Position numbers and translations under genes: made by a program. From positions 1 through 52,694 of IMG/VR virus record IMGVR_UViG_3300037882_000444: 52,694 nt of DNA. One strand, given 5' to 3'. Below are positions 1 through 15,662 of this stretch, piece by piece; positions within the stretch are counted from its first letter, which is position 1; each line of letters starts with the position of its first letter. The notes under the pieces were generated by a model, which saw only the letters and a list, made by a program, of their open reading frames with translations, had not been told where the DNA came from and did not search any database. Source of the DNA: a virus. Its lineage: Duplodnaviria; Caudoviricetes.

Positions 1-338
1 AATGCGTATTGCATTATATCGAATGATTCACAATGCCAGAACAGCTTCATCAATCTAAGGACACGTAATGTCCTAATCAAATCCATGTGTTCTTGTGGGA
101 CAAAGAACCCAACGTAGAAAGGGAGTATTGAAAGAAGATCCACCACGAACTCTCCAGTCTTCCAATACCCCCTCTCATTCTTCAGTTGATAATACAACTC
201 AAAGGTGAAGACGGCGGCAATGGATCGTTCTAACCACAAGAACCAAAAATTACCGTCACATTCACAACCTACTTCGAAAAAGTATGCAACTACACTGGCG
301 ACAGCTAGCCAGTTACACGCTTTCTTAAATAAGTTCAT
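1..338 (-). CDS. Voltage-gated ion channel-like protein, N-terminal voltage sensor S1-S4 (partial, runs off window)
   Basis: Manual translation from ATG at 338, open to the window edge: MNLFKKACNWLAVASVVAYFFE...WLERSIAAVFTFELYYQL...FVVDLLSILPFYVGFF...DLIRTLRVLRLMKLF. S3 motif DLLSILPFY and S4 RxxRxxRxxK are present. Not in the ORF track. Confidence 0.85.
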   Translation of the reverse strand, partial: MNLFKKACNWLAVASVVAYFFEVGCECDGNFWFLWLERSIAAVFTFELYYQLKNERGYWKTGEFVVDLLSILPFYVGFFVPQEHMDLIRTLRVLRLMKLFWHCESFDIMQYA

Positions 339-349
339 TGTATTATCTT

Positions 350-613
350 TTAGTCACCACCACCACAATCACATCCGCCGCCTGAGTCATAAGACCCACC
401 TGAGTCATAACTATGACCACTTGAGCCAGAGTCATAACTTGGAGCAGAATAACTAGGACTAGCTTCAGACATGAAACTAGACATAATCGCTACACTATCA
501 ATAGCACTATCAACAAGTAGCCACGTATTATCAATATACACTTCTTGTGTAGATCCATATCCACGGGTTCTATACTTGTTAGCCAATGCTTGCTTTTTCT
601 TTTCTTTCGTCAT
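350..613 (-). CDS. Small protein with Ser/Gly/Asp-rich (SYDSGG) C-terminal tail
   Basis: ORF 350..640; start moved to ATG 613, which overlaps the upstream stop (ATGA). Confidence 0.65.
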   Translation of the reverse strand: MTKEKKKQALANKYRTRGYGSTQEVYIDNTWLLVDSAIDSVAIMSSFMSEASPSYSAPSYDSGSSGHSYDSGGSYDSGGGCDCGGGD

Positions 614-1059
614 ACTTTTATTTCTATCATTTTGGGCCAATACATGTTCATATTGGTTCCCTTAGAATTTGCAATCGTTATATGAAGACCCTTATAGTTC
701 GGACCTTCAACGATACCTAAATCTCTCTTGATTTCATCAAGTTCTTCAGAAAAGACTTTGATGTAGAACATGATGAAACCCTTTAGGTATCCACCTTGAA
801 TCATATCAACGTCATACTCGAATTTGACTGACTTATTCTTCCATTTAGAAGCTTTCTCCCAATCAATAACAGGATGAAATTTTGAATTTGCTAAAGTTAT
901 GTGTGGTGCATACATCGGTGTTCCCAATGATACCCAATACTTCCTAGTAATGAACCAGTTGTAATATTTTGTGAAATCTTCACTTACATTAACCACAACC
1001 CGACCCCTACCATTTTGGCATTTCACGTATATTTTACCTTCTGATTTCACTAAGGCCAT
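610..1059 (-). CDS. 2H phosphoesterase superfamily protein
   Basis: Two HxT motifs (APHITL, GLHITI) about 70 aa apart. True start may be the in-frame GTG at 1050, judged by promoter spacing. Confidence 0.75.
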   Translation of the reverse strand: MALVKSEGKIYVKCQNGRGRVVVNVSEDFTKYYNWFITRKYWVSLGTPMYAPHITLANSKFHPVIDWEKASKWKNKSVKFEYDVDMIQGGYLKGFIMFYIKVFSEELDEIKRDLGIVEGPNYKGLHITIANSKGTNMNMYWPKMIEIKV

Positions 1060-1077
1060 AATAGTCGGGTTTTAATT
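1058..1077 (-). promoter_or_regulatory. AATTAAAACC-box promoter
   Basis: AATTAAAACC-CGAC-TATTAT-N7-GTG(1050). Confidence 0.75.
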
Positions 1078-1653
1078 AATTAGTAGATACTTATCGATTT
1101 CTCTTATGATCTCGATAGCATTCTTATCAAACATATTGAAGACTGGAATACCATAGTGATTTGCAATCCTAATAGCTTGACCAGTTCCGCCTACATCAGT
1201 CCCATCATGGGTCCAACATATAACAAACTCAGAATCAGCTTCTCCCCATCCTCTTACTTGACGATAGTTTCGAGACATGAATCTCATGAAACGATAATAT
1301 TCATCAGATCTTGAAGTGTCTTTCAACTCCAACATCTTTTTAAAATAAGGATGAAATTTCTCAACTGAATCCCATGCTTCAGGATCAGGTTCACCGGGAC
1401 AACATTCGTCACCAACTAACCTATACCTATGTTCAGGATATAGATCTTGAAACTCTTGTTCGAAATCTTTCCATGGTAGCCAAATTTGAGCATTTTTACC
1501 ATGAACACCTTTAGCGAATGCTTGATCGGAACCAGTGGCATTTCCACTTCTGAGTATATAACCTCTTTGAGTTAAACACTTGGAGATATTCTCCATGTCA
1601 ATAGCTACCGTCTTCGGTATAGTTCTTGATCCAATTCCAGCGAAAAATTTCAT
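1072..1653 (-). CDS. DprA-like / SLOG-fold nucleotide-binding protein
   Basis: Motifs AGIGSR, LRSGNATGSDQAF, RNYRQV, GGTGQAIRIA match the phage DprA-like SLOG family. Confidence 0.8.
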   Translation of the reverse strand: MKFFAGIGSRTIPKTVAIDMENISKCLTQRGYILRSGNATGSDQAFAKGVHGKNAQIWLPWKDFEQEFQDLYPEHRYRLVGDECCPGEPDPEAWDSVEKFHPYFKKMLELKDTSRSDEYYRFMRFMSRNYRQVRGWGEADSEFVICWTHDGTDVGGTGQAIRIANHYGIPVFNMFDKNAIEIIREIDKYLLIN

Positions 1654-2042
1654 TTTATGATTAGTTCAAATTTATCAGAATCGGGTCCAAAATTCTCTTT
1701 ATCAAAGGAATAAGTCTTATAGAACTTACCACCCTTTTCCCATTTTGAAATTTGTGAGTAATCCGTCCAATGATGATGAGTATAGTCATCTAATACGATG
1801 TCTAAGCCACCATCGTTAAGTTTAATCATAACTGGTGTAGTTTCAACCTGAGCAGTTTGTTTGTAATCCTTATCACTCCTAACTGCCACAGTAAGCATAC
1901 CACCCATCAACCAGAATACACACATAATCATAGCAAATCCCCCATCAGGTTCATTGTTATGACTATCAATTGCGGATATAATGATTGCAGTTATAAAAAT
2001 AACTGGAAACATACAAAACCATATTAATTCATACCAAGTCAT
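1650..2042 (-). CDS. Hypothetical membrane protein (2 N-terminal TM segments)
   Basis: Two hydrophobic stretches; own promoter box; ATGA overlap with the next gene. Confidence 0.7.
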   Translation of the reverse strand: MTWYELIWFCMFPVIFITAIIISAIDSHNNEPDGGFAMIMCVFWLMGGMLTVAVRSDKDYKQTAQVETTPVMIKLNDGGLDIVLDDYTHHHWTDYSQISKWEKGGKFYKTYSFDKENFGPDSDKFELIIK

Positions 2043-2043
2043 G

Positions 2044-2739
2044 TTAAGATGGTATTTGGGTTTTAATTGCTAAGTCTGCTTCAACTTGTGCTATTCTTTT
2101 AGCAATGCGTTTGGCATAAGAACTCACTCTTAGGGGAGTTAGATGACTTAGGATGTTTCCAGCTTTGGTTGTTTGAATTTCCCAAACTTCACCGTTATGT
2201 TGATTGGCCCACTCTTCAAATTGAGCAGTATCCCAATTCATTAAGTGCATCAGATATACTTTATTAAACTCACCATGAGCAACAATAACATTGATATCAT
2301 TGTTAGTCACCTTCTCCATCCATTGATGGAATAGGGCAGCACGTTGATAAGCATCAGCAAAGGATTCTCCACCTAGCGGAGTGTAATAGAAATTGAAGTG
2401 CTCTTCAGCTTTCAAGTTCTGTTCAATGATATCTCTCAATGATCCCCACTCACGCTCACGGCATAATGGAGTTGGAACGAATTTATCAACCATGTGACCA
2501 CTATCATTCAATCTATCATAGATGATGTTAGCGGTTTGTGTAGCTCTTTTGTAAGTGCTGTGAAAGATATTAATATGACCATGATTAGGTCCAAGCAATT
2601 CAACAATCCTATCTGCCGCATTGACAGCATCACCTTTTCCCTTATCTGTTAATTGCACATCACAATCGTTCATTTGGAAGTAAACCTGTTTGTTCACATT
2701 ACCTTCTGATTGTCCGTGTCTGACTAAAAATAATCTCAT
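2044..2739 (-). CDS. Histidine phosphatase (phosphoglycerate mutase family)
   Basis: LVRHGQS, RATQTA, REREWG, GGES and VAHG motifs. Confidence 0.9.
   Translation of the reverse strand: MRLFLVRHGQSEGNVNKQVYFQMNDCDVQLTDKGKGDAVNAADRIVELLGPNHGHINIFHSTYKRATQTANIIYDRLNDSGHMVDKFVPTPLCREREWGSLRDIIEQNLKAEEHFNFYYTPLGGESFADAYQRAALFHQWMEKVTNNDINVIVAHGEFNKVYLMHLMNWDTAQFEEWANQHNGEVWEIQTTKAGNILSHLTPLRVSSYAKRIAKRIAQVEADLAIKTQIPS
2049..2068 (-). promoter_or_regulatory. AATTAAAACC-box promoter
   Basis: AATTAAAACC-CAAA-TACCAT-N6-ATG(2042); lies in the 3' end of the upstream CDS. Confidence 0.7.
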
Positions 2740-3179
2740 TTCTCTATTATTAAGTTGTTTTCGTGTATGTTTCCTATTACCTCTACTTTGGACCAGTCAT
2801 ACTTACTGCCATTAAGGTTTGCCCTTCCGGTTGGATTGACTATGTTTTTCTCATGTAGAGTGAACTTCTTCCCATCGAAGGAATGATAGATATATGGACG
2901 AAGGAATGACCCTTGATAGAAATCAATCTTATAGATGCTATGCATGTATAGATCCTCACATAGTTTAGTTGGTTCTTCACCAAATCTTACTAAGTCGCCT
3001 TCATAGATCTCAACTCCGTGTTTATCTTTAAGACCAATATACTGCATTATGGGCGGTTGTTCATCATAAGAACAACCATCACCATCACATATCCATCCAT
3101 CTAAAGCTAAGGTATATTGTGATGATTTATAAGTCATCATACTTACCCCTGCCCAGATCCTGAACTTTATATCTCTCAT
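2736..3179 (-). CDS. YopX family protein
   Basis: MRDIKFRIW...MQYIGLKDKHGVEIYEGDLV...EVIGNIHEN. Confidence 0.9.
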   Translation of the reverse strand: MRDIKFRIWAGVSMMTYKSSQYTLALDGWICDGDGCSYDEQPPIMQYIGLKDKHGVEIYEGDLVRFGEEPTKLCEDLYMHSIYKIDFYQGSFLRPYIYHSFDGKKFTLHEKNIVNPTGRANLNGSKYDWSKVEVIGNIHENNLIIEK

Positions 3180-3757
3180 CGATTGACTATGTTGATCTTA
3201 TACTTCTGTCCCGCTACATAAGGTGTTGGAACCAATATCCTTCCGAGTTCTTTCCATGTTACACCCTTATCCTTAGAAGTCATGAGAAACATGTATTTCA
3301 CCTTAGATATGGTGTTTAGATTGTATTTGTATAATTGACCAGTTACGATTGGAGGTGGAACGACTGCTTGACCTATTACGATCCAAGTCTTGCCTTTATC
3401 TTTAGATGTTAGTCCAACCACATACTTCTGTATTACAGGAACTTCCTTTATCACCTTGAATGCTACTTCATTGGAGTATGGGCTTTCCGCTGTTCCATTA
3501 TAACCCTTAACTGCCACATAATAGACCTTATCGAATGTGAGATCAAGTAAAGCAGCTTCAGTGTTTGTAGTGAGATACTTATTAGTGTATGTATTGGGCG
3601 ATTCTCCAATATCCACCGAATAACTCTTAGTGTTGCCAGTAGTATCAGCATCCCATACAGCAGTAGCCTTGGCTTCCGTTGAAGTTATGATAGTTTGTGC
3701 GTTTACACTGGACAATGTTAGTCCAATGAACAGTAGTATAATGTTTAGATATTTCAT
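3176..3757 (-). CDS. Exported fibronectin type III-like protein with two Asp-box repeats
   Basis: Signal peptide; FN3-like YYVAVKGYNGTAESPYSNEV; two SKDKGxTW motifs. Confidence 0.7.
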   Translation of the reverse strand: MKYLNIILLFIGLTLSSVNAQTIITSTEAKATAVWDADTTGNTKSYSVDIGESPNTYTNKYLTTNTEAALLDLTFDKVYYVAVKGYNGTAESPYSNEVAFKVIKEVPVIQKYVVGLTSKDKGKTWIVIGQAVVPPPIVTGQLYKYNLNTISKVKYMFLMTSKDKGVTWKELGRILVPTPYVAGQKYKINIVNR

Positions 3758-3981
3758 AAGTCGTGTAGGTATTCCAACATTCCGGCTTCCACATCTTCCA
3801 TGATGTATTTGAAATCCTCTGGATACAAGTCAGCCTCAGTTATGTTATACTCATAGGCCAATTGAATTCTCATATCGAAATCAGTTTCATTTCGATACCA
3901 TTGAATTTCTTCAGGAGTTGGTTCATATCGCTCACAATAAAGATAATCTTCGTAAGCTTCTGGTGGATCTTCTGGTATCAT
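3754..3981 (-). CDS. Small acidic hypothetical protein
   Basis: ORF with ATGA overlaps on both sides. Confidence 0.6.
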   Translation of the reverse strand: MIPEDPPEAYEDYLYCERYEPTPEEIQWYRNETDFDMRIQLAYEYNITEADLYPEDFKYIMEDVEAGMLEYLHDL

Positions 3982-4382
3982 AGTAATGGTAGTTTATCAG
4001 TTATTCCTTCAAATTTTTCATCCCAATGAGGACCAATAGCAACAACAGTCTTAGTGAGAACTCCATTGAATTCCGTCGCACCGTTGTCGATAATCATATT
4101 CGACATTAATCCGTTGTCAAGTGCCTTTTGGTGAATAGCATCAAGTTCTTCCTCACTGTTCACAAAAACACAAATCTTACGAAACGAATTATTGAGCCAA
4201 TGAGCGACTTCTTCAGCATATTTGTTATCAATGGAACATCTGAAATGATCCCAAGGTGCTGTGTTCATCATAAGACCTTTTCTAGTCAAGAACGACATAG
4301 CAGCATGAGAACACTGAGCCGCAATCTTACCCTTACGCATGTTAAGATCCTTACGGACCACTAGAACTTGTTTTGTATTCAT
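3978..4382 (-). CDS. pth2: Peptidyl-tRNA hydrolase, PTH2 family
   Basis: KQVLVVRKDLNMRKGKIAAQCSHA, IIDNGATEF, TVVAIGP, ITDKLPLL. Confidence 0.92.
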   Translation of the reverse strand: MNTKQVLVVRKDLNMRKGKIAAQCSHAAMSFLTRKGLMMNTAPWDHFRCSIDNKYAEEVAHWLNNSFRKICVFVNSEEELDAIHQKALDNGLMSNMIIDNGATEFNGVLTKTVVAIGPHWDEKFEGITDKLPLL

Positions 4383-4885
4383 TTTAGTAGTCTCAATCCG
4401 TATTTTGTTCCTCTTTTACAGAAGGTAAATTTTCCTTTCACAACACCGAACACCATATCATTGACATAATCTGTGAAATCTGTTAAGAACACTGCGTATT
4501 CTTTTCCAGTGAGTGTGCTTTTGAATTCCAAACCAGCAGAAGATTGACCACGGTAGAATCCAGTGTATTTCAATTCATCATCAAAGATGAAATTCTTCAC
4601 AGTGTAATACTGATCACACTCACCAACATAAATATCATTTCCGTATGGTGCTGGCACTGGTTGTGGATGTTCCACGAAATTCAACTCAGCAAGAGTATAA
4701 AATGATGCTGTTTTGTTACGAGTATTTGTGAGATAATCATACTTGTCAGTTAGAACTCTATCACCAGATATCATATCTGCGGTCAAGTTCAACCGTATTC
4801 CACCCCAAGGGGTATGAGTTAGCATATTACCATCCATATCGAATGATATATCTCCAGCGTAAAGTTTCGGTGTTTTGATCTTCAT
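4379..4885 (-). CDS. Hypothetical protein
   Basis: 168 aa ORF in a coupled operon. Confidence 0.7.
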   Translation of the reverse strand: MKIKTPKLYAGDISFDMDGNMLTHTPWGGIRLNLTADMISGDRVLTDKYDYLTNTRNKTASFYTLAELNFVEHPQPVPAPYGNDIYVGECDQYYTVKNFIFDDELKYTGFYRGQSSAGLEFKSTLTGKEYAVFLTDFTDYVNDMVFGVVKGKFTFCKRGTKYGLRLLK

Positions 4886-5241
4886 ATCGTTTTGTATCGT
4901 TCAAACCAGTCGTCTAAGGTGTAGAAATCAATGTTTCCCATGTCCATATCACAGTAGTAAGTGTCACCCATAAAGGTGAACCATCCGCTATGGATATTGG
5001 TATCGTATTTCTCTCTGAATTTGTCCATGTATTCAATCCACTTCTCTTGGGTGTATTTGTGTTTGCCCATTGGATTGTTGGCTTCTTGCCACACACGAAA
5101 CTCATGGTAATTCTTCTTGGTTTCCTCTAAAAGAGTCAAGAAGTCATACTCCGCATCTTCAAGAGATTTGTATTCGAATGGGATTATATTTTCCCCACCC
5201 TCATACTCATTTCCATCGTAATATTTAATTATTAGTCTCAT
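4882..5241 (-). CDS. Hypothetical protein
   Basis: 119 aa ORF in a coupled operon. Confidence 0.7.
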   Translation of the reverse strand: MRLIIKYYDGNEYEGGENIIPFEYKSLEDAEYDFLTLLEETKKNYHEFRVWQEANNPMGKHKYTQEKWIEYMDKFREKYDTNIHSGWFTFMGDTYYCDMDMGNIDFYTLDDWFERYKTI

Positions 5242-5492
5242 CGGTTATACCAAACTATGTGTGTTGCCCATTCTGGAAAGTCATAGCCTTTAGCGTAAGA
5301 TGGTTGAATTATACTATTTGATTTCTTGTTAATTGTTGCGAGATTTCCATGACCGTCATAATCAATGAATCCGCCCCATTTAACTTCTTCTAACCATTCT
5401 GAAAGTGTGACATGATAATCATCAGATTCAATTGGTTCAAATATAGTCCCTTTCTCTTCGGCATCAGCCTTCATCATTTCTATAATGCTCAT
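5238..5492 (-). CDS. Hypothetical protein
   Basis: 84 aa ORF with ATGA overlaps. Confidence 0.7.
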   Translation of the reverse strand: MSIIEMMKADAEEKGTIFEPIESDDYHVTLSEWLEEVKWGGFIDYDGHGNLATINKKSNSIIQPSYAKGYDFPEWATHIVWYNR

Positions 5493-5752
5493 TGTAGTTC
5501 AAATGTTTCTCTAAAGTTATCTCCGTATTTTCCATCCTCTACCCATACACCCTTTTCGATAGCTTTGAGCCATCCATCAGGGAATGATTCAGCAGCAAAA
5601 GTAGAAAAAAGGCCAAACTGTTTATGTTTGACCTTTTCTTGGTAGAACTTGGTTATACCCAAGAACCTATCATCTGGATAGAGTTCAAGAATCTTGTTTA
5701 GTGTATCTCTCATCGTCTTTACATCTATGGATGAATTTGACAGTGTGACCAC
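5489..5752 (-). CDS. Hypothetical protein
   Basis: ORF fills the operon gap; likely start at ATG 5713. Confidence 0.6.
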   Translation of the reverse strand: MVTLSNSSIDVKTMRDTLNKILELYPDDRFLGITKFYQEKVKHKQFGLFSTFAAESFPDGWLKAIEKGVWVEDGKYGDNFRETFELQ

Positions 5753-6398
5753 CTTGATAAGTGCCAGCAGGACAAGTCATAGCGTCTCCAGTTACATCGG
5801 AGAAAGCAGCGATCTTGTTATACCACATCTTTTCAGTGATAAGAGGGATCTTGGACTTGTGAACGAAGATATGATAACCACCACGGGTTTCTGTGATATC
5901 ACAATATCCTTCAGTGATTTCAACAACTTGATCGACAAGCTTTTGTTCCTTATCGTCAATATCAAACATGACATACTTACGAGTTCCAGCATTTTTCTGG
6001 ATTTCGCTCATAACTTCGGCATGAGGATTGGAATTCCTACCATTACACTCAAGCACTTTAGCCAGTTGTCCAATAGAACGCACTGTAGCCTTCCACAAGT
6101 CGCGAGGATTGGGAGAGATATACAGAGCTAAGGATTCTTGTGGAACGGGATTACCGTCGAACGTGAACGCACCAACCTTACATTCTAGTTGAGCGATCTT
6201 ATCGTAAAGGAATTCTTTCTTGGAAGTGAATCGCTTGAGTTGTCCCTTATCGGATTTGATCCACGGGACATCCTTACAATACTTCTTACGCATGAAAAGG
6301 CAGCAATAGTATTGCTCGTTTTCAAGACAGTCTGGAAGCCATGCGATGAATTCTCTTAGAGCATCTGGGTTTGTGATTATTTGGTATGTTTCAGCCAT
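5685..6398 (-). CDS. Putative AEP (primase-polymerase) superfamily protein
   Basis: hhhDxD (VMFDIDD), then ETRGGYHIFV, then a downstream Asp, in AEP motif I-III order. Confidence 0.5.
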   Translation of the reverse strand: MAETYQIITNPDALREFIAWLPDCLENEQYYCCLFMRKKYCKDVPWIKSDKGQLKRFTSKKEFLYDKIAQLECKVGAFTFDGNPVPQESLALYISPNPRDLWKATVRSIGQLAKVLECNGRNSNPHAEVMSEIQKNAGTRKYVMFDIDDKEQKLVDQVVEITEGYCDITETRGGYHIFVHKSKIPLITEKMWYNKIAAFSDVTGDAMTCPAGTYQGGHTVKFIHRCKDDERYTKQDS

Positions 6399-6404
6399 AT
6401 GAGT

Positions 6405-6424
6405 ATTATTGTTCGGTTTTAATT
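6405..6424 (-). promoter_or_regulatory. AATTAAAACC-box promoter
   Basis: AATTAAAACC-GAAC-AATAAT-N6-ATG(6398). Confidence 0.8.
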
Positions 6425-6576
6425 ACCTTTTCATCGGTCTGGTTTATGTTTACTTTGAATTCGGCCTTATCACATAATTGACAAGTCGCCACTCCAACAC
6501 ATAAACAAAAGATAAAAATCCCTTGTCCAACCCATGAGGCGAACTCACTATTAAACCATTTAATTTCTTCTTCCAT
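6406..6576 (-). CDS. Small membrane protein
   Basis: 3' part of ORF 6406..6714 from ATG 6576 (MEEEIKWF), 1 nt after the upstream stop; one hydrophobic segment. Confidence 0.55.
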   Translation of the reverse strand: MEEEIKWFNSEFASWVGQGIFIFCLCVGVATCQLCDKAEFKVNINQTDEKVIKTEQ

Positions 6577-6577
6577 A

Positions 6578-6991
6578 TTAATTGCTTGCAAGTCTGAATT
6601 TACGAATGTAGTCATACACTCTCTTATCGTCACATGAATACCACCATTGATTTTCATCCCACTCATCCAACTTGCAATCGTATTGGGATTCCTTAAGGAT
6701 AAAGGCGATAGCACTCATAGATCCGTTAAGGTCAGGTTCGAAAAATGCTTCATATTGAATGTTTAAGTTTTGAACTTCTAAAGCCCTATCAAGCATATCA
6801 CCAGATCCACCACCATCCAATAGGATAAATGTTTTGTGGTCTTTGATGAACTCATTATAAATGGGATCATCTTTAAATGTATTGGCATATTCCAGTGCTG
6901 CATGACCCGCCTGAATACCCTTCTGGATTCCAGATAGGTTATACATGACAAAGAAATACATTCTTAGTCCATTTTGATTCGCAACTAACAT
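6578..6991 (-). CDS. Second, divergent PTH2-like protein
   Basis: MYFFVMYNLSGIQKGIQAGHAALE...FFEPDLNGSMSAIAF is the phage PTH2-like pattern. Confidence 0.7.
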   Translation of the reverse strand: MLVANQNGLRMYFFVMYNLSGIQKGIQAGHAALEYANTFKDDPIYNEFIKDHKTFILLDGGGSGDMLDRALEVQNLNIQYEAFFEPDLNGSMSAIAFILKESQYDCKLDEWDENQWWYSCDDKRVYDYIRKFRLASN

Positions 6992-6997
6992 AGTTAT

Positions 6998-7017
6998 ATC
7001 GTAATTGGGTTTTAATT
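6998..7017 (-). promoter_or_regulatory. AATTAAAACC-box promoter
   Basis: AATTAAAACC-CAAT-TACGAT-N6-ATG(6991). Confidence 0.8.
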
Positions 7018-7282
7018 AAAGGAATCTGAGAGTTACTGATAAGTCAAGACCACCTTTTATGGGTTTCAATCCTTCAATAAATTTCTCATGACATTTTATA
7101 AAATCATAACCATCAATACACACATTAGCATTAATAGTATGAACGTAAAAATTAGAGAAATCTTCTGTTTTTACATCAATCATAACCTCATCAGTTAATG
7201 TATCACAGATAACATCTCTAACAGATACCTTATCTTTCTTGTAGATAGAAACCGTTCCTTCTATGTGTGTCCAAACTGACAT
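7016..7282 (-). CDS. Hypothetical protein
   Basis: 88 aa ORF in operon. Confidence 0.65.
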   Translation of the reverse strand: MSVWTHIEGTVSIYKKDKVSVRDVICDTLTDEVMIDVKTEDFSNFYVHTINANVCIDGYDFIKCHEKFIEGLKPIKGGLDLSVTLRFL

Positions 7283-7283
7283 G

Positions 7284-7508
7284 TTAATTAATTATTGCGA
7301 CACCATTCTTCATAGTGATGCTATTTGCTTTCCCTGCTATTACCCAAAATGGTTGAGACTTTCTGAGTCTCCCCTTTATGGGAACACTACATTCTAAGTT
7401 GTCAACGATGTGACAAGCATTCATATAGTGAATGGTAATTTGAGTCTTACCACATTTTCTGGATTCGGGTTTATTGTAGTGAAACCAAAAGGCTTTCATA
7501 TTAATCAC
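7284..7508 (-). CDS. Hypothetical protein
   Basis: 74 aa ORF in operon. Confidence 0.65.
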   Translation of the reverse strand: MINMKAFWFHYNKPESRKCGKTQITIHYMNACHIVDNLECSVPIKGRLRKSQPFWVIAGKANSITMKNGVAIIN

Positions 7509-8637
7509 AGTCGCGAATTGAGTAAACGTAAGGGAATCTAGGAATCAACTTATCTGGAGTCAAGTTAAAGAATCTAATCGTAGCTTTTTTGCCGATGAAT
7601 TCTTCTTGATGTTCCCAGATGTATTTCAGATACTCTCTAGTTCCTTTGATGTTTGATTTGAAAGTATGACCAAGTTCATTGGTGAATACCATTGCGCCTG
7701 CCATTCCAGAACGATTTCCTGTTCCTTCGATGATAGCCTCAATAACATACTCAGCATCTTGGAACTCTTTTCTTTTGAGAAGAGTGTTGGAACGCTTGTA
7801 TTCATAAGGTTCATTGATACGAACCATTTGACCCTCATAACCATCTTCCAAGTATCCACCATAAACAGCAGTCAAGTCTTCGACATTAGCTACTTCAGTG
7901 GTTGGAACATAAACAATAGGAGAATTTTCATCGGAGAAATGTTTACGATGGTTGAAACGAATGAATCGTTGTCTTCCAAAGACGTTTCTCTTCGGATCAC
8001 AGACATCATACCACCAGAATTGAACATACTTCTCAGACCAGTATAAATCTTCTGACTTCGGTTTGGTCTTTTTGACCAATGAAGTGATTTTGTTGAAGTC
8101 ATCATGGAACTCATGATTATACAACTCACCATCAATAACCAAATCAGGGAACTCAGCGAATAAGGGTTCCAGTGCTCTCAGAATATGAGGAATTGAAACC
8201 CATCGTTTTCCTGATCTTGCAAATGCACCATCCTTAGAGATAACAGCACGAAGACCATCAAGCTTTGGTTGTGAGTATAGAGGAAAGACAACTTTAGCCT
8301 TTCGATCATCCCACTTCTTAGCAAGCATTGGTTCAGTGAATGTGAAGTTGTCGATATTATCAACATCCTCATGGTATCCACTATCTATTTTCCTTTGCCA
8401 CATTGCTCTAGCTTCAAATACAGCCTGCATATCAGGAAGTCTTTGATTAGCTCGACCTTCATTGGTCACGATACAAACTGTCCATTCAGTTGTTTGTAGC
8501 TTACCACCAACTTGACCGTGAATGGTTCGATATGAATCTTTAAAGACTTCAACAGTCCATTCTTGAATCGCACCAGTATTAGTTCTTGCGTATAGGGTGG
8601 GGAATTCTTCCTCCACATCATCGTTCATTCCAAACAT
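7501..8637 (-). CDS. lig: ATP-dependent DNA ligase
   Basis: PMLAK, QPKLDGLRA (motif I), IDGELY, GYEGQMVR, KRSNTLLKRK, C-terminal PRFP. Start set at ATG 8637; the ORF track extends to 8724, overlapping the upstream gene. Confidence 0.93.
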   Translation of the reverse strand: MFGMNDDVEEEFPTLYARTNTGAIQEWTVEVFKDSYRTIHGQVGGKLQTTEWTVCIVTNEGRANQRLPDMQAVFEARAMWQRKIDSGYHEDVDNIDNFTFTEPMLAKKWDDRKAKVVFPLYSQPKLDGLRAVISKDGAFARSGKRWVSIPHILRALEPLFAEFPDLVIDGELYNHEFHDDFNKITSLVKKTKPKSEDLYWSEKYVQFWWYDVCDPKRNVFGRQRFIRFNHRKHFSDENSPIVYVPTTEVANVEDLTAVYGGYLEDGYEGQMVRINEPYEYKRSNTLLKRKEFQDAEYVIEAIIEGTGNRSGMAGAMVFTNELGHTFKSNIKGTREYLKYIWEHQEEFIGKKATIRFFNLTPDKLIPRFPYVYSIRDCD

Positions 8638-8638
8638 A

Positions 8639-9178
8639 TTAAAATAGTATATCTTTATCGTTAATTTGACGACCTTCGTAATACTCAACCCAGCCACCAC
8701 CATCGTTATACACTCCGGTTTCAATTAGCATGATGTTGTAGTCAACGATTTGGGCATCAGTTGTCCATTCGACAATACAAGTCTTGCCAAAGAGTTCATT
8801 TTGAACTTTCTTTTTGAAGACGATATCATCGCAATAAATTTCTGCTGGATAATTCTGATTATCAAACAGCCACTTATGTTCACCTTCCATCAAGATCTCC
8901 CTTTTGTCAGGAGTATAGAAGTCAGGTTCACAGTATAGATACACATCACATGCATCTTGGAATGTTGAGCAGACTAGAATATATTCATAGTCCGTTCCGA
9001 TATGGTCAAGCGTTAAGATGACATAATCAGATAGATTACGTGAATACTCGCGCTTCTCTTTGATTAGGAAATCTGGAACAGCTTTGACATCATCAAGTTG
9101 AATCAAAAGGTCCACATCATTGACACGGACCAATTGACCAACCGCACAGTTTTTAAAACTTTTGATCAGATCTTTCAT
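8639..9178 (-). CDS. Hypothetical protein, possibly DUF4178/DUF2491-like PspA-operon partner
   Basis: Acidic beta-rich protein ending LIETG...VEYYEGRQINDKDILF; lies downstream of pspA. Family resemblance from memory only. Confidence 0.45.
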   Translation of the reverse strand: MKDLIKSFKNCAVGQLVRVNDVDLLIQLDDVKAVPDFLIKEKREYSRNLSDYVILTLDHIGTDYEYILVCSTFQDACDVYLYCEPDFYTPDKREILMEGEHKWLFDNQNYPAEIYCDDIVFKKKVQNELFGKTCIVEWTTDAQIVDYNIMLIETGVYNDGGGWVEYYEGRQINDKDILF

Positions 9179-9906
9179 AAGAATTTCTTAGCAAGGAAGA
9201 AAGCACCGACACTGATACCTCCTATGATAATGGCAGTTAGGAAGAATGTTCCCCAACCAGAACCGGAAGACTTATGAACATGAGTGACTTGAGCAGGTGG
9301 AGGACCAACATGGTAGTTGCTCTTATCCATCATAGCATTCATCATAATAGCATCAGACATCATATCATACATGATGAAGGTTCCGAGTCCCGGTCCACCA
9401 CCACCCCAATATCCATAACCACCACCTTGTTGATTATATGTAACGTCATAATTTCTACCATCATTACCTCGGTAAGAGGATGGAATATGTTCAGGACGAC
9501 TTGAGGGTTCTGAAGTGTATTTACTTGTATAAGATGATGCTTTAGTAGCTTTGAAGTCTGCCACAGCACTATCTCTAGTTTGGAATGTTTTACCACTCTT
9601 GACCGCTTCCTTATATCGAGCAGCTTCAACATTAGACTTTGGTCTGGATGAAGTTTGTGCTACCGAAGTATTAGGTTTGCTTACTGGAGCAGACTGAGCA
9701 GTAGGCGCAGGAGTTGCTTGTTTAGGAGCAACAGTAGGCTTAGGAGCAGGTGCTACATAAGGTTTTGGTGCGGGTGCAGCAGGTCGAGAATAACTACTAG
9801 AACTTCGACTAGAAGAACTAGAACTCCTACCCCCACCACCACCTTTAGCTTCCAACGATCCAACGCTAAGAAAAGCGATGGCTAGAATTTGCATTAATTG
9901 TTTCAT
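9175..9906 (-). CDS. Exported, C-terminally membrane-anchored Gly/Ser/Pro-rich protein
   Basis: Signal peptide (..GSLEA), GGGGGRSSSSSS and PAPKP low-complexity segments, C-terminal TM helix. Confidence 0.75.
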   Translation of the reverse strand: MKQLMQILAIAFLSVGSLEAKGGGGGRSSSSSSRSSSSYSRPAAPAPKPYVAPAPKPTVAPKQATPAPTAQSAPVSKPNTSVAQTSSRPKSNVEAARYKEAVKSGKTFQTRDSAVADFKATKASSYTSKYTSEPSSRPEHIPSSYRGNDGRNYDVTYNQQGGGYGYWGGGGPGLGTFIMYDMMSDAIMMNAMMDKSNYHVGPPPAQVTHVHKSSGSGWGTFFLTAIIIGGISVGAFFLAKKFL

Positions 9907-9912
9907 ACGTCT

Positions 9913-9932
9913 ATTATGTTCGGGTTTTAATT
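9913..9932 (-). promoter_or_regulatory. AATTAAAACC-box promoter
   Basis: AATTAAAACC-CGAA-CATAAT-N6-ATG(9906). Confidence 0.8.
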
Positions 9933-10647
9933 AACCCATAACCTTGCTAACTGGAGCAGAACTTACGGAAGGAGAAGCGATACCCATTTCGGCTTCGAAT
10001 TGTGCTAGAGCAATTTCTGCCATAGTATGATCCGCAGCTTCCATTTCAGCGATTTGAGAGAAGTCAGCACTATCCTTAGCAACACGAAGTCTTCCAGCAG
10101 CCTTGTTACGCTCTGCATCAACGATTTCGCTGATTCTATTCATATTATCAGCACCAGTTCCAATTTGGGAGATCATACCATTAGCCATTTCAGTCAGATT
10201 TGCCGCAGCAGTATCCATCTTCATACCTTTGATATCTCTTGAGAGTTTCTCCATCTTTTCCTTAGCACCCTTAACAGACAAGTCTCTTGCTTTGGTCAGT
10301 TCCTTATACTTCTGCTCGGAAGTAGTAAGACGTTCCAAGACTTCATCATGCTCTTTATCAATAGCATCCAATCGAACAGCAAGTTGTCCTGCTAGTTCTC
10401 TCTTACCTGCTTGAATTAGAGCTTTGACTTTGAGACGAAGATCATTTTCTTCAGCATCTAGTTTCTTAGCTTGTGCAGCAAGACTTTCTACAAGACCAGC
10501 ATGTTCTGCTAGACCATTGTTGAAAGATGCGATTTGTTTTCGCATGTTTTCTTTTTCCAATTCCAGAAGTGCTTCTGGGTTATTCTTTTCGAGTCCTGAT
10601 ACAAACAGTCCGAAAAATCCTTTGATTAAGTTTAGTAGTCGTTTCAT
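9931..10647 (-). CDS. pspA: PspA/IM30 (bacterial ESCRT-III) family protein
   Basis: N-terminal amphipathic helix MKRLLNLIKGFFGLFVSGLE, then NPEALLE, long coiled coils and AGKRELAGQLA. Start at ATG 10647. Confidence 0.85.
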   Translation of the reverse strand: MKRLLNLIKGFFGLFVSGLEKNNPEALLELEKENMRKQIASFNNGLAEHAGLVESLAAQAKKLDAEENDLRLKVKALIQAGKRELAGQLAVRLDAIDKEHDEVLERLTTSEQKYKELTKARDLSVKGAKEKMEKLSRDIKGMKMDTAAANLTEMANGMISQIGTGADNMNRISEIVDAERNKAAGRLRVAKDSADFSQIAEMEAADHTMAEIALAQFEAEMGIASPSVSSAPVSKVMG

Positions 10648-10662
10648 ATATATATACTTCAA

Positions 10663-10794
10663 TTAGATACCATCTCGAATGGGAAATTGCTCACATTCTT
10701 TAGCATTCTGAGCTAAAATCTCAGCAGCCTTTTCAAACTTCTCTATTTGCTCTGGTGTTAATACCAATGGTTTGTTTTTAATAATGTCTTCCAT
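10663..10794 (-). CDS. Small hypothetical protein
   Basis: 3' part of ORF 10663..10848 from ATG 10794, adjacent to the ligase stop. Confidence 0.5.
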   Translation of the reverse strand: MEDIIKNKPLVLTPEQIEKFEKAAEILAQNAKECEQFPIRDGI

Positions 10795-10795
10795 A

Positions 10796-12181
10796 TTAGC
10801 TATCTTCTTCAATATTACTCTCACCAGCATCACGTTCAGCAGATTCACCTAAGATGAACTTAGGACTCTTGAACTTAAACACAGGCTTTTTCTCACGGTT
10901 GTTAATCTTGAGGACAACACCTTCATTGACCACACCAGTAGTGCAAAGTCCGCATGTCTTATCAAGATACTCTTCCTTCATTGCAGTGAGGAAATCACTA
11001 TTCCAAGTTGGAGTTAGGGGAAGGTTGAATAGTTCTACTGCTGGTCCATGATAATAGACCGGAGTGTGTTTGAAACCATGTTCTACACAGAACTTTTCGA
11101 TTTCATCCCAAGACAATTCTCGGGTAGGATCAACATCGGTAGTGTATGTTACACGATACACCCAGAATTCAGATTCACCCTTGGCAACACCATAGTCATA
11201 GTTCTTTTGAACCATCTTACCGTGATTGACATATCCAACGATTTCACCATATACAGCATAACCCGCTGGAATCATTCCTTTGAACTCTTCAGCATGTTTG
11301 CCCCATACATCGTCTGTGTATTTTCCATCGCGTCTATTCTTGAGAACACTTCTGCTAGAGTAGATTTCTTTGTATTCCACTTCAGAATATGTAGCACCAA
11401 ACCAGTTGGCAATATTTCTGAATGGATTGAAAGTCTTCTTCACAAGAAGATTCGCATAGATAGCGGAAGTTCCATGAACTTTGGAAGTAATGGAAATGTC
11501 ATCGTTAGGATTCAGAACGAAGATGTTCTTACCCAGATGTTCCGTGCTGTAATGGAATTGGAATTGTCCATCAACGATTTGAGACTTGATTCCTTCAGCG
11601 TTGCGATTGAACCACGCATTAACAAAGAGATAAGCCTTCCTACGAATAGGACGAGGGAAGAAGCCAATTGTAGCGTCGATCCACTTAGGAACACGACTCT
11701 TCTTAGCGTTAGCTTCTCCAGAACCCTTAGCGTCACCCTTGATGTATTTCTTCACTAGAAGTTCTCCGTTAAGAGAATCAAACACCTCACCCACATTGAA
11801 GTGGGCATCATCAACACCAGAGAATTCTGCTAGTTTAGAAGTAGGGAATAGGAATCCTTGACTTGGAATACCACGGAGAGAAACAGCACGAACACGACCC
11901 TTAGATTCAAAGAATCCTTTAGTCTTTTCGTCTGCATTCAATTCTGGTTTAGTCAGAAGGTTCGCCCAAGAAAGAAACTTGGTAGATAGGCAACTTTCCA
12001 CAGGAAAGTAGACGACCTTTTCATGTTCTTTATAGGAGTCCTTACCAATGATAATCGTATTACCATAAATTTCCACTAGGGATAGCTTATCAGCATTAGG
12101 ATGATCCTTGATTGTAGGAACTTGAACAACTGTCGCCAGATAGTTAGGGTCTGCCCCTTCTGTATATGTCAGTAATCTCAT
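10796..12181 (-). CDS. RNA ligase, DRB0094/Rnl5-like family
   Basis: N-terminal OB-like HPNADKL...LRGIPSQG; TSKVHGTS (motif I), VYGEIVG, EGVVLK, FKFKS. Confidence 0.85.
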   Translation of the reverse strand: MRLLTYTEGADPNYLATVVQVPTIKDHPNADKLSLVEIYGNTIIIGKDSYKEHEKVVYFPVESCLSTKFLSWANLLTKPELNADEKTKGFFESKGRVRAVSLRGIPSQGFLFPTSKLAEFSGVDDAHFNVGEVFDSLNGELLVKKYIKGDAKGSGEANAKKSRVPKWIDATIGFFPRPIRRKAYLFVNAWFNRNAEGIKSQIVDGQFQFHYSTEHLGKNIFVLNPNDDISITSKVHGTSAIYANLLVKKTFNPFRNIANWFGATYSEVEYKEIYSSRSVLKNRRDGKYTDDVWGKHAEEFKGMIPAGYAVYGEIVGYVNHGKMVQKNYDYGVAKGESEFWVYRVTYTTDVDPTRELSWDEIEKFCVEHGFKHTPVYYHGPAVELFNLPLTPTWNSDFLTAMKEEYLDKTCGLCTTGVVNEGVVLKINNREKKPVFKFKSPKFILGESAERDAGESNIEEDS

Positions 12182-12187
12182 GTGTTG

Positions 12188-12207
12188 ATTATAGGGTGGT
12201 TTTAATT
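12188..12207 (-). promoter_or_regulatory. AATTAAAACC-box promoter
   Basis: AATTAAAACC-ACCC-TATAAT-N6-ATG(12181); perfect -10 hexamer. Confidence 0.85.
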
Positions 12208-12781
12208 AACCGTTGACTTCTTCGTAGGCTTTGAGGATACCTTTAACATTTTCAATTGTGATGCGTTGGCAACCAACTTGGACGTAATCCAATCCCTTAG
12301 TAACGGTTCCGCTGTAATCACGGGAGACACTAACACTGATAGACTTTGGCTTCTTAGCTGCATCTTCAGGGATGAATTCTTCAACGGTTTCGTAGAAATC
12401 TGTAAGACGACTTCCACTATCAAGATAGTCCGGCCAATCAACTTCATCATTATCATCAAAGACTTCTGCATTCAAAGCGAGTCCAAGATCATAGAGTGTA
12501 TCAACACAAGCAGTATCAACGCGATCAGTGAAGTCTAAGTCCCAAAGTCTATCTCCAATATCAAGACTCAACACATCAAATAATGCCTTAATCTCTTTGG
12601 TCGCCTTAAAATCGATTTCATCGAAGTCAATGTCACCATACGGGGACATATTATACTTCGCCGTGACCGTAAGGCCAGAATATAGATCAAACTTCAGTGT
12701 TTGTGTTTTGATAAAGTTCTTCTTATAGAAGTCGAAGTATGCCTTTGCCGCTGCTTTAATTGCTTTGATGTCTTTTTTCAT
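12206..12781 (-). CDS. Hypothetical acidic protein
   Basis: 191 aa ORF in operon. Confidence 0.7.
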   Translation of the reverse strand: MKKDIKAIKAAAKAYFDFYKKNFIKTQTLKFDLYSGLTVTAKYNMSPYGDIDFDEIDFKATKEIKALFDVLSLDIGDRLWDLDFTDRVDTACVDTLYDLGLALNAEVFDDNDEVDWPDYLDSGSRLTDFYETVEEFIPEDAAKKPKSISVSVSRDYSGTVTKGLDYVQVGCQRITIENVKGILKAYEEVNG

Positions 12782-12795
12782 ATCGTTATTAGTTA

Positions 12796-13338
12796 TTAGA
12801 TTTTTACGCTAGATTGTGCTCTCAGTTCTGCTTCGTCAATTTCATAGACGAAGAAGACAATTCGATGGAATTTAGATTCGATGCTTTCGATGATTGCTTC
12901 AACAATGTTCCACTCACCACCAGCACGGGCGCATCCCATATACTTAGGGACACCCACTTTAAACATACCCTCATAATAAGGAGCATTTGCGATGATGTCT
13001 GCACATATTCTGTATAGAGCATCGAATAGGCTGTCGTAACTACAATTCCTATGAAGAGGATCGCCATCATTACCAACACCCCACATGGCATACATATTAT
13101 ATACACCACGACCATCACCAACATCTGCTAGGGTAAAGTAACCAAGTTTGTCATCAGGAACGGCATCACAGTCATTCATATCAAGATTGTCTTGGAAATC
13201 CAAATCTGCTTGATACACTTGTGGCCATTTCTTACGAAGAAAATACGCCACACCTGATCCCATCACGCAATGAGAATTTGCTACGTGTGCAGCAAAATCC
13301 CAATCGCCTTCTAGTAAGTCACCCTTAATATGTTCCAT
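12796..13338 (-). CDS. Macrodomain (ADP-ribose binding/hydrolase) protein
   Basis: IKGDLL, HVANSHCVMGSGVA, PKYMGCARAGGEW. Confidence 0.88.
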   Translation of the reverse strand: MEHIKGDLLEGDWDFAAHVANSHCVMGSGVAYFLRKKWPQVYQADLDFQDNLDMNDCDAVPDDKLGYFTLADVGDGRGVYNMYAMWGVGNDGDPLHRNCSYDSLFDALYRICADIIANAPYYEGMFKVGVPKYMGCARAGGEWNIVEAIIESIESKFHRIVFFVYEIDEAELRAQSSVKI

Positions 13339-13344
13339 GACACG

Positions 13345-13364
13345 ATTATGCTTCGGTTTTAATT
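13345..13364 (-). promoter_or_regulatory. AATTAAAACC-box promoter
   Basis: AATTAAAACC-GAAG-CATAAT-N6-ATG(13338). Confidence 0.8.
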
Positions 13365-13534
13365 AAGAGTTCTTCCTTGCGTTTATTGATAGCTTTTTCC
13401 AAGTTATCTAAACGCTTGGTGATTTCTTTGGTATGGCCCAAGCTCTCTTTAACGATGAGTTTGAAGTAACGACCCTTTAAAGAAGTCAGAACTTCATCCT
13501 CAACCACCTCAACAACTTTTTTCTTTCTAGGCAT
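13346..13534 (-). CDS. Small basic hypothetical protein
   Basis: 62 aa ORF with TAATG overlap. Confidence 0.6.
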   Translation of the reverse strand: MPRKKKVVEVVEDEVLTSLKGRYFKLIVKESLGHTKEITKRLDNLEKAINKRKEELLIKTEA

Positions 13535-13722
13535 TATTCGAAATCCTCCTGTTTTCCGTAACCTGAGTAAGTATATTCATCCTTGCGGTATTCCTTACCC
13601 TCCCAGAATCCAGATTCAAAAACGTCTAATAGTCTTTCACGAAAGTCGTTCAACTCTTCAGTTTCATAACCCCAAGTTTCCTTGAGTTCCTCAATATGTG
13701 CGTCGATTACGTTCTTGTTCAT
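13534..13722 (-). CDS. Small acidic hypothetical protein
   Basis: 62 aa ORF with ATGA overlap. Confidence 0.6.
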   Translation of the reverse strand: MNKNVIDAHIEELKETWGYETEELNDFRERLLDVFESGFWEGKEYRKDEYTYSGYGKQEDFE

Positions 13723-14300
13723 AAAAATATTGCTCTGGTTATTCTGTTTTTTGTTTCGTCAATAAATTGATCGATGTGGTTCTTATCTACATCCCCAACC
13801 CATACAGTAAATTTTGGTATCTGTATCAGATTATTCTTAGGAATTCCACTTAGGAAATCGATCTTATTATTACCTTCTGATCTTTTGATGTGATGAGCAA
13901 AGCTCATATCGTCAATTAATATATTATGTGTATCTTTAAATTTTGGATGAACTTTTAAGGTTGCTATATCCTCTTTCCCAAAAATTTGGAAGTTAGGATC
14001 AAACCCAAGCCCCATCTTAACATTAGCCCATAGAATGTATTCCTTTCCTCCAATGGAAAGCATATTCACATTATCAAATCCCGCAAGATTTCTTGTAAAC
14101 TCTAATAGTTCTAATGCTCCATTTCTCAGAAATGAAACATACCACCCATCATGGCGAATATAATACTTAACACCTTTCCAGTATTCGCTATATAAATCCA
14201 TCAATTGATCGGCATGTTTTTCACTATCAGCATAGAATGTGTGTATTAAACTTTCATCCAAATCCCAAAATAGTTTATTTCCAGTCTGCATTAAAATCAA
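13719..14300 (-). CDS. HAD-superfamily (FCP1/NIF-like) phosphatase
   Basis: LFWDLDESLIHT (DxD), LRNGALELL, ILIDD. Confidence 0.75.
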   Translation of the reverse strand: MILMQTGNKLFWDLDESLIHTFYADSEKHADQLMDLYSEYWKGVKYYIRHDGWYVSFLRNGALELLEFTRNLAGFDNVNMLSIGGKEYILWANVKMGLGFDPNFQIFGKEDIATLKVHPKFKDTHNILIDDMSFAHHIKRSEGNNKIDFLSGIPKNNLIQIPKFTVWVGDVDKNHIDQFIDETKNRITRAIFL

Positions 14301-15553: not shown

Positions 15554-15554
15554 A

Positions 15555-15662
15555 CTATTCGTGATCTACATTTGTTACTCCCATGAAGTGCCATACTGCT
15601 ATTCCTATACATATAAGAAATACTGGAACTCCTATCGCCAACACTATTATTATAAAGTCCAT
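15555..15662 (-). CDS. 35-aa single-pass membrane protein (not in ORF track)
   Basis: MDFIIIVLAIGVPVFLICIGIAVWHFMGVTNVDHE; exactly fills the gap, with TAATG overlap upstream and 1 nt spacing downstream. Confidence 0.65.
   Translation of the reverse strand: MDFIIIVLAIGVPVFLICIGIAVWHFMGVTNVDHE

Follow-up and report, generated by a model that had tools for sequence, protein, structure and literature searches.

A phage gene, cut short by the contig end, for a probable compact Kv-type potassium channel

The virus record IMGVR_UViG_3300037882_000444 (Duplodnaviria; Caudoviricetes) is a single linear contig of 52,694 bp, the whole of which was analysed here and is referred to below as the window. 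Its first bases hold, on the minus strand (338..3), what is very probably a phage gene, present as its first half only, whose product would be a compact, voltage-gated and K+-selective channel of ~220 amino acids with almost no cytoplasmic tails; for both the molecular identity of the product and its mode of action as a phage channel of the Kv (voltage-gated K+) type our confidence is high, if short of certainty. The gene appears to be interrupted merely because the assembly ends there. The case draws on the gene itself, its family, its conserved sensor residues, the pore of its orthologues, its phage context and its separation from the cellular Kv proteins sampled, and from these we infer the intactness of this copy, K+ selectivity, the tetramer, voltage gating with its polarity, and a role in infection. 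In itself the window adds half a gene; its value lies in the family to which that half gene leads, one of minimal Kv channels maintained by large phages.

A channel gene interrupted by the end of the contig

The frame begins with an ATG at position 338 and stays open to base 3, giving 112 codons with no stop before the window's first base. It appears in the table of open reading frames (ORFs) only if frames that run off the end are included, which fits the remark in a preliminary description of this DNA that the ORF track had missed it. The open frame with voltage-sensor segments reported there is present, on the minus strand, a point that the description had left unstated. The 112-residue product matches the Pfam family Ion_trans (PF00520), a match that the same description had proposed looking for, at 39.2 bits (gathering score 25; E 5.9e-10; positions 16–118 of the 241-position profile), and it matches the phage protein family phrog_7872 at E 6.6e-8. 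Its closest full-length relative, the 220-residue protein P0001, is 96% identical to it, differing at four of the 112 positions. The features of the fragment, numbered by residue of the predicted protein and in part placed with the help of an AlphaFold2 model of P0001, are as follows.

3..338, minus strand: 5' part of the channel gene, encoding S1–S4 and the start of the S4–S5 linker (ORF, Ion_trans, phrog_7872, 96% identity to P0001)
267..335, minus strand: S1 helix, residues 2–24 (helix in the AlphaFold2 model of P0001; hydropathy maximum around residues 13–20)
177..248, minus strand: S2 helix, residues 31–54, with outer acidic residue E37, aromatic cap F44 and inner acidic residue E47 (AlphaFold2 model, conservation, alignment with Kv4.2)
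111..155, minus strand: S3 helix, residues 62–76, with D67 and DLLSILPFY (AlphaFold2 model, conservation, alignment with Kv4.2)
33..95, minus strand: S4 helix, residues 82–102, with the ladder R89, R92, R95, K98 (AlphaFold2 model, conservation, alignment with Kv4.2)
3..29, minus strand: start of the S4–S5 linker, residues 104–112, the frame running past the contig (the helix that starts at residue 104 goes on in the full-length relative)

The pore had been placed outside the window, and so it is; it also lies outside the record as a whole. A circular or terminally redundant contig was considered as a source of the missing half and rejected, as no overlap was found between the two contig ends and the far end holds no minus-strand frame that continues the channel gene. 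Sequence from elsewhere does extend the contig: a 151-nt contig from an independent sequencing run spans window 1–133 with one mismatch and carries 18 extra letters before base 1, indicating that the DNA continues beyond the end of the assembly.

That the gene is a dead remnant, truncated or decayed to its N-terminal half, we consider highly improbable. Such a reading would account for the fact that only 112 codons are visible and that the second half is found nowhere in the record. Against it, the break falls exactly at the contig end with the frame still open, the four differences from the intact P0001 leave every conserved sensor residue in place and, as just described, a contig from another run carries on past base 1.

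Full-length relatives and the pore

Direct searches with the 112-residue fragment found no match by tblastn in 50,697 phage records, and a pattern scan of IMG/VR with the same fragment returned one candidate and no relatives. Longer relatives numbered 29 among 254 candidates, all with both PF00520 and the pore family Ion_trans_2 (PF07885). Nineteen of these close relatives, 54–96% identical to the fragment and 212–222 amino acids long, form the clade on which most of what follows is based. All 19 run on from S4 into an S4–S5 linker, S5, a pore helix, a T-(I/V)-G-F-G-D filter, S6 and a short basic tail, and this, together with the Ion_trans match, upholds the Kv-like identity put forward in the preliminary description.

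The Pfam scores agree. P0001 scores 70.8 bits for Ion_trans and 48.7 bits for Ion_trans_2; on the three clade members scanned, Ion_trans_2 reaches 45–49 bits against a cutoff of 22.5, and Ion_trans and Ion_trans_2 are the only families found. The automatic annotation of the JGI labels several clade members 'voltage-gated potassium channel'. Full-length clade members match phrog_7872, which PHROGs v4 annotates as 'unknown function', at E 1e-21 to 1e-22 over about 175–180 of 254 profile positions. A metagenomic protein more distant from the window, P0021, fits that family better (E 8.1e-32), making the window's clade a divergent branch of phrog_7872. When metagenome contigs were scanned with the clade alignment, at least 183 relatives emerged from at least 596 candidate stretches; among the 80 kept, the only close locus (72% identity) sits on a 1.7-kb contig that adds no context.

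A conserved voltage sensor

Both sequence segments quoted in the preliminary description are present on the minus strand: DLLSILPFY of S3 corresponds to residues 67–75 (window 114..140) and IRTLRVLRLMKLF of S4 to residues 88–100 (window 39..77). Its count of four hydrophobic segments stands in part. Four helices are seen in the model of the relative, while a Kyte–Doolittle scan (15 residues, cutoff 1.2) gives strong hydrophobic peaks for S1 and S3 only; the other two segments, S2 and S4, combine an amphipathic character with charge, in line with a voltage sensor. The ladder motif is no evidence when taken by itself: R..R..R..[RK] occurs eight times when the window is translated in six frames (105,384 residues). 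It is the profile matches that carry the case.

Conservation within the clade falls on the residues that matter in such sensors. Invariant in 19 of 19 members are E37, R38, F44, T45 and E47 of S2, P73 and F74 of S3, R89, R92, R95 and K98 of S4, and the filter G164-F165-G166-D167, with D67 nearly invariant. In the alignment with Kv4.2, E37, F44 and E47 correspond to the S2 Asp, Phe and Glu, D67 to the S3 Asp, and R89, R92, R95 and K98 to the R-R-R-K of S4. The two S2 acidic residues, the aromatic residue between them and the S3 Asp (E37, F44, E47 and D67) are all present in the window's own sequence, an arrangement that we take to be the charge-transfer centre. The four basic residues presumably occupy the second to fifth ladder positions in Shaker numbering. 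D86 stands before the ladder, at the position of the first charge, and W101 follows K98, which leaves the sensor with four S4 charges.

Fold, tetramer and comparison with solved Kv channels

Searched against all sequences in the PDB, the clade profile returned 192 distinct matches at E <= 0.001, headed by human Kv4.2 (7ukf; E 3.8e-19), which aligns over profile positions 25–208, from S2 to S6. The AlphaFold2 model of P0001, built from a 19-sequence alignment, has helices at residues 2–24, 31–54, 62–76, 82–102, 104–141, 149–162 and 173–218. Foldseek found 94 matches to it at E <= 0.001, the top PDB matches being Kv4.2, Kv4.3, Kv2.1 and Shaker, with TM-scores on the query of 0.54–0.64 at 17–24% identity.

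Modelling also predicts a homotetramer around a central filter. A four-copy prediction on P0001 scored 0.62 against 0.00 for the best of three controls; the mark that it passed is reached by 20 of 30 proteins whose solved structure is a pair of one chain, and by one of 23 whose solved structure is a single chain. Contact agreement between runs was at least 90% and partner predicted local distance difference test (pLDDT) values were at least 66. The best-determined contacts are those of filter residues 161–167 around the axis and of the pore helix against S6. Residues of S1 and S4 appear among the interface residues of two copies, which in the model is compatible with a domain-swapped sensor. 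Because Kv tetramers have already been solved, the pass may express likeness to these and nothing further.

Two groups of known channels invite comparison. The Shaker superfamily (Kv4.2, Kv4.3, Kv2.1, Kv1.2 and Shaker) provides the best profile and fold matches, in the transmembrane core only. In contrast to the eukaryotic Kv1–Kv4 channels, the clade lacks a T1 tetramerisation domain, with only about 10 residues before S1, and has no PVP gate, the P-V-P positions of the Kv4.2 alignment reading S-(F/M/L)-V; judged by sequence, then, the clade protein is not a member of the eukaryotic Kv1–4 subfamily. KvAP (PDB 1orq, 2a0l, 6uwm) shares with it an S1–S6 layout free of large cytoplasmic domains, along with the S4 ladder and the K+ signature filter. 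Compared with prokaryotic channels of the KvAP type with six transmembrane (TM) helices, the clade is shorter (212–222 amino acids), has a G-F-G filter where the sampled cellular Kv proteins mostly have G-Y-G, carries four S4 charges and is phage-borne.

These comparisons bear on a different reading of the protein, in which the sensor no longer senses voltage or the pore is not K+-selective, so that the product would be a constitutive or otherwise gated cation leak that depolarises the host for shut-off, lysis timing or the exclusion of a second phage. The absence of the PVP motif, the D86 and W101 flanks of a ladder with only four charges, and the unusual T-C-G-F-G-E filter of a viral relative described below would all suit a leak. 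We nevertheless think it improbable: the four S4 charges, the S2 acidic residues, the aromatic cap and G-F-G-D are invariant across 19 members that differ at up to 46% of positions, which would be difficult to account for if voltage sensing and the K+ filter were not under selection, and KvAP (1orq) matches the clade profile across S1–S6 (E 3.1e-9, profile positions 10–198).

Orthologues within large viral contigs

The preliminary description called the channel phage-encoded, and this has held up: the window carries myovirus structural and replication genes, and full-length orthologues lie inside two further IMG/VR viral contigs, of 166 kb (L001) and 83 kb (L002), about 32 kb and about 34 kb respectively from the nearest contig end. 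Their flanks share genes with the window, namely an RNA ligase (48.5% identity) and four further genes at 34–53% in L001, and four genes at 26–59% in L002. Identity of the channel to the window's fragment is 69% in L001 and 62% in L002, above that of every other gene shared with the window, which points to constraint. Its guanine + cytosine content tracks that of its carrier (channel/carrier 36/35, 44/41 and 49/48%), which fits long residence in phage genomes.

The surroundings of the gene differ from carrier to carrier. No recurring neighbour was found among the window, L001 and L002: the window has His_Phos_1, YopX, PTH2 and DprA-like genes, L001 NAMPT and L002 an RNA ligase. The L001 neighbour, upstream of the channel at 8307–9704 (plus strand), is a nicotinamide phosphoribosyltransferase with NAMPT_N and NAPRTase domains, a metabolic gene. 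The window's large terminase (TerL) and sheath proteins had no match in the two related viral records, both of which are incomplete (CheckV 78% and 47%). Among phage families, phrog_23 (sheath) matches the window and, weakly, one of the two records (G002) and not the other (G001); phrog_168 (clamp loader) matches the window and G001.

A non-phage origin, with the contig end belonging to a host chromosome (as a prophage border or a chimera) and the gene to a bacterial Kv channel, seems to us scarcely credible. It is true that the gene lies at the extreme end of the contig, that many small IMG/VR hits also lie near contig ends, and that one record labelled as phage has its ion transport protein between acnB and ydhP, in a stretch resembling bacterial DNA. 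The channel, however, is eleven bases from a co-oriented array with PHROG matches, and its orthologues are surrounded by homologues of the window's phage genes, deep within the viral contigs of 166 kb and 83 kb. The cellular proteins, too, are far away: the best sampled cellular score on the clade's profile is 95.5 bits against 390–408 for clade members, and the best identity among the matches listed is 39%.

Separation from cellular Kv channels

The cellular side was sampled in two ways. Scanned by pattern, with a single genome per species, 185,579 prokaryotic species gave at least 600 candidate stretches and at least 91 relatives, the best of the matches listed being the 39% just mentioned, measured on the fragment; on the clade's own profile the best of the cellular proteins listed (242–494 amino acids, mostly G-Y-G) reached 93 bits. 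Two plausible freshwater host groups were also searched with that profile. The phylum of a Flavobacteriaceae genome gave matches in 165 of 401 genomes, and it is here that the best score of 95.5 bits was found; the class of a Polynucleobacter genome gave them in 61 of the 400 genomes scored, the highest at 84.8 bits.

A tree of 75 rows unites the 19 clade members in a single group with a Shimodaira–Hasegawa-like approximate likelihood ratio test (SH-aLRT) value of 100, on a stem of about two changes per site. The group stands apart from all 45 cellular proteins included (the best-scoring 45 of 80 loci), and its neighbours are unnamed metagenomic proteins. The clade is thus monophyletic and far from every cellular Kv protein sampled.

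An exhaustive profile search of 1.84 billion cluster representatives gave 11,029 matches at E <= 0.001, a number that falls to 1,632 when the limit is set at 1e-10 and to 22 when it is set at 1e-30. The top representative scores only 254 bits, which implies that the clade collapses into very few 50% clusters. Below it comes a continuum of compact proteins of 205–280 amino acids that share E47, P73, F74, G77, F78, R89, R92 and R95. Some of the best profile hits (P0046, P0047, P0049 and others) are of another build, 760–1750 amino acids with three to five matched stretches each, that is, multi-repeat sensor–pore channels.

IMG/VR, scanned with a broader alignment, yielded 296 relatives from 568 candidate stretches. 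Each of the 80 loci kept has a K+ filter, and 67 of them have an S4-type ladder as well; eight lie on viral contigs of 99–479 kb, and four of these eight spell RTLRxLRxLK, as the window does. A second tree, of 91 rows, sampled the clade (10 of 19 members), the cellular loci (30 of 80) and the viral loci (22 of 80) and included 29 unnamed proteins. Here all eight channels from large viral contigs side with the window's clade and unnamed proteins (50 rows, SH-aLRT 87), and on the other side fall all 30 cellular proteins and 11 small, prophage-like viral loci. Within the first group the window's clade nests with P0044, P0045 and the channel of a 179-kb viral contig (13 rows, SH-aLRT 99). That channel (L168, at 4001–4666 of its contig), the nearest relative on a large viral contig, has the filter T-C-G-F-G-E instead of T-(I/V)-G-F-G-D.

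No cellular sister group of the clade was found in either tree, with their 45 and 30 cellular proteins. Some of the unnamed metagenomic proteins near the clade could be cellular, so that what may be said is that the clade has no close cellular counterpart among the genomes searched.

Known viral and phage K+ channels

Phage genes for K+ channels were already known, and the window adds another of the Kv type. The text of Greiner et al. 2018 (PMC6163359) catalogues such genes, their function being called speculative there: 2TM proteins of 117–124 amino acids in Mycobacterium, Acinetobacter, Pseudomonas and Streptomyces phages, proteins of 149–228 amino acids with the signature (T/S)T(I/V)GFGD in at least nine vibriophages, and, in Lactobacillus phage PLE, a 259-residue protein with an identical counterpart in the host. 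Judged by the definition used in that text (a phage gene, G(Y/F)GD and at least two TM helices), the window's gene belongs with them, its filter being seen in orthologues. The likeness extends to the (T/S)T(I/V)GFGD-type signature found in the phage channels described there (Myrna, KVP40-like vibriophages, PLE) and to their occurrence in large T4-like myophages such as the window's carrier; the difference is that the channels in that text are mostly 2TM proteins of 117–124 amino acids and those of the window's clade 6TM proteins of 212–222. The word 'voltage' does not occur in the paper's text, its supplementary topology tables aside. A literature search found no paper on voltage-sensor K+ channels in phages, with the proviso that the supplement of PMC6163359 may list topologies of the vibriophage channels; one hit uses the term for trkA of bacteria.

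A tblastn search with P0001 against the 50,697 phage records hit seven, all below 35% identity. Vibrio and Mycobacterium phages are absent from these seven, so the search shows no close kinship in sequence with the examples of Greiner et al. 2018. A genuine phage case is Dulem virus 33 (PP511792.1, 2866–3573), a 40-kb circular temperate phage. Its channel, of 235 amino acids with an S4 ladder and a T-M-G-Y-G-D filter, lies between an XRE repressor and an integrase, a moron-like position in the lysogeny module. 'Acinetobacter phage MD-2021a' (CAKLQH020000004.1, 226272–232245) was rejected as a phage precedent, its channel being the bacterial-looking one flanked by acnB and ydhP.

The preliminary description had set the gene against the Kcv-type channels of chloroviruses and other algal viruses, a fair contrast. 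The two are alike in being virus-encoded and very small and in having a G(Y/F)GD filter (as described in the text of PMC6163359), whereas Kcv-type channels are 2TM pore modules of about 80–160 amino acids with no sensor and the window encodes a complete S1–S4 sensor. The rarity that the description implied is overstated, given the 2018 catalogue in the text of PMC6163359, the 296 relatives in IMG/VR and the combination of ladder and filter in 67 of the 80 loci kept; the gene is less isolated than had been thought. According to the part of PMC9405923 that deals with it, the Kcv of PBCV-1 resides in the virion's internal membrane and acts at entry. Tailed phages have no membrane, which excludes a virion-borne entry channel of this type in practice, and the window's channel must act from the host membrane after expression.

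How the channel might act during infection

The gene lies in an accessory, non-structural region, so its protein would be made in the infected cell. There it would insert into the host cytoplasmic membrane as a homotetramer around the T-(I/V)-G-F-G-D filter. On a change in voltage the S4 charges R89, R92, R95 and K98 would move through the E37/F44/E47/D67 centre and open the gate, and the open K+ pore would draw the membrane toward the equilibrium potential of K+. That potential is very negative in dilute fresh water, beyond typical bacterial membrane potentials, and opening would therefore let K+ out and repolarise the cell. A channel opened by depolarisation would thus act as negative feedback that holds the potential, and hence ATP synthesis, transport and holin timing, against depolarising insults. 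The role that we prefer, somewhat short of an even chance and included within our higher confidence in identity and mode of action, is that of a self-limiting repolarising clamp that would keep the infected cell energised until lysis. The roles put forward in the preliminary description, superinfection exclusion or the offsetting of depolarising abortive-infection effectors, are speculative; its counter-defence idea would be a special case of the clamp.

On a wider view, large phages (about 100–480 kb) might keep an old, minimal Kv lineage of their own, distinct from the bacterial ones, as a voltage-triggered safety valve, an idea that we rate as unlikely at present. The channel would open as the infected cell depolarises, whether through a membrane-attacking abortive-infection effector, a superinfecting phage or premature leakage through the holin; K+ would leave, the potential would be restored, and phage production and the timing of lysis would be protected. 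Were this so, bioelectric control of the host would be a phage counter-defence strategy.

Gating polarity is not readable from the sequence, which makes the clamp one of several possible roles and also speaks for a rival reading, that the channel supplies K+. A path that is activated by hyperpolarisation, or simply leaky, and that conducts inward would load K+ for phage translation and as counter-ion for the about 200 kb of DNA in each progeny genome, much as some bacterial K+ channels support K+ uptake. The archaeal channel MVP, similarly small, opens on hyperpolarisation, and the clade is very compact at 212–222 amino acids. T4 and T5 need raised host K+ conductance for the injection of their DNA, as stated in the text of PMC6163359. 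We hold K+ supply to be decidedly unlikely all the same, because pieces of the phage occur in freshwater runs, where an open K+ channel would lose K+, and because no K+ transporter or RCK/TrkA gene is a recurring neighbour.

Besides gating polarity, several points weigh against the reading of the gene as that of a working Kv-type phage channel. This copy, whose pore half lies outside the record, is only presumably intact, and the continuation of the DNA past base 1 comes from one low-depth 151-nt contig. The AlphaFold2 model of P0001 is of moderate confidence (mean pLDDT 73.2, predicted template modelling score 0.48), and this structural proxy has Gly where the window keeps the conserved S3 Asp67. 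The kinship of the two related viral records with the window rests on accessory genes only. As for the host, megablast of window 1–20000 against deposited phages found no shared DNA, and no tRNA genes were found in the window, which gives no host clue. A paper of 2026 (PMC13715775) states, in the part concerned with phages, that K+ channel-like genes have been detected in some of them and that no functional studies of these have been reported.

Voltage-gated K+ channels are among the best-understood of proteins, and their roles in bacteria are largely unclear. If the safety-valve view is right, the phage family would offer ion-channel research some of the smallest natural voltage-gated K+ channels. 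Their small size suits cell-free expression and bilayer recording, and the family is a possible minimal scaffold for work on voltage sensing.

Carrier phage and gene neighbourhood

The carrier is a fragment of a deeply divergent T4-like, contractile-tailed myophage of ~200 kb, the window being about 26% complete by CheckV. The divergence is indicated by the distant TerL, at 30–36% identity to its counterparts in T4-like phages of Rhizobium, Sinorhizobium, Synechococcus and Pseudoalteromonas, together with the lack of any deposited phage sharing DNA with its first 20 kb. Many of the 64 long ORFs of the window match phage families (PHROG), including, besides the sheath and terminase listed here, baseplate wedge subunits, a clamp loader, an RNA ligase and an ATP-dependent DNA ligase. 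In an accessory region, outside the structural module, the channel closes the visible part of a minus-strand array of tightly packed genes.

350..640, minus strand: ORF of 96 amino acids upstream of the channel and co-oriented with it, with an 11-nt spacer to the channel start
within 1075–1653, minus strand: DprA-like gene, accessory neighbour of the channel
within 2047–2739, minus strand: His_Phos_1 histidine phosphatase, accessory neighbour
within 2739–3179, minus strand: YopX, accessory neighbour
within 3981–4382, minus strand: PTH2 peptidyl-tRNA hydrolase, accessory neighbour
30110–32437: tail sheath (phage family match)
33089–34885: large terminase, TerL (phage family match)

The 96-residue ORF has a tail rich in Ser, Gly, Tyr and Asp, ends in a Cys-Asp-Cys-Gly run and has no match in Pfam or PHROG; one metagenome contig carries a 3-nt deletion within it, at position 355. 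Neither promoter-like sites (15 in 1..4000 against 16.2 +/- 4.4 in shuffles) nor terminator-like sites (1 in 1..4000 against 1.6 +/- 1.3, none on the minus strand) exceed chance. Pieces of the window occur at 95–100% likeness in three of the four freshwater metagenome runs examined, with partial cover of window 1–3000, and no RNA run is among the 21 listed runs with window DNA.

Four large ORFs in or near the baseplate region (38753–40969, 43276–44883, 47447–49093 and 49935–52598; 739, 536, 549 and 888 amino acids) have no PHROG match at E <= 1e-5 and may be divergent baseplate or fibre proteins. Two ORFs of the tail-tube family phrog_45, at 28816–29379 and 32499–33077 (both minus strand; E 6e-9 and 1.6e-18), flank the sheath gene and look like paralogues. 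Three GIY-YIG homing endonuclease ORFs (phrog_314, E 1e-24 to 1e-35), at 15906–16610, 23419–24066 and 29387–30049, all on the minus strand, are spread through the replication and tail modules, one of them lying between the sheath gene and a tail-tube paralogue.

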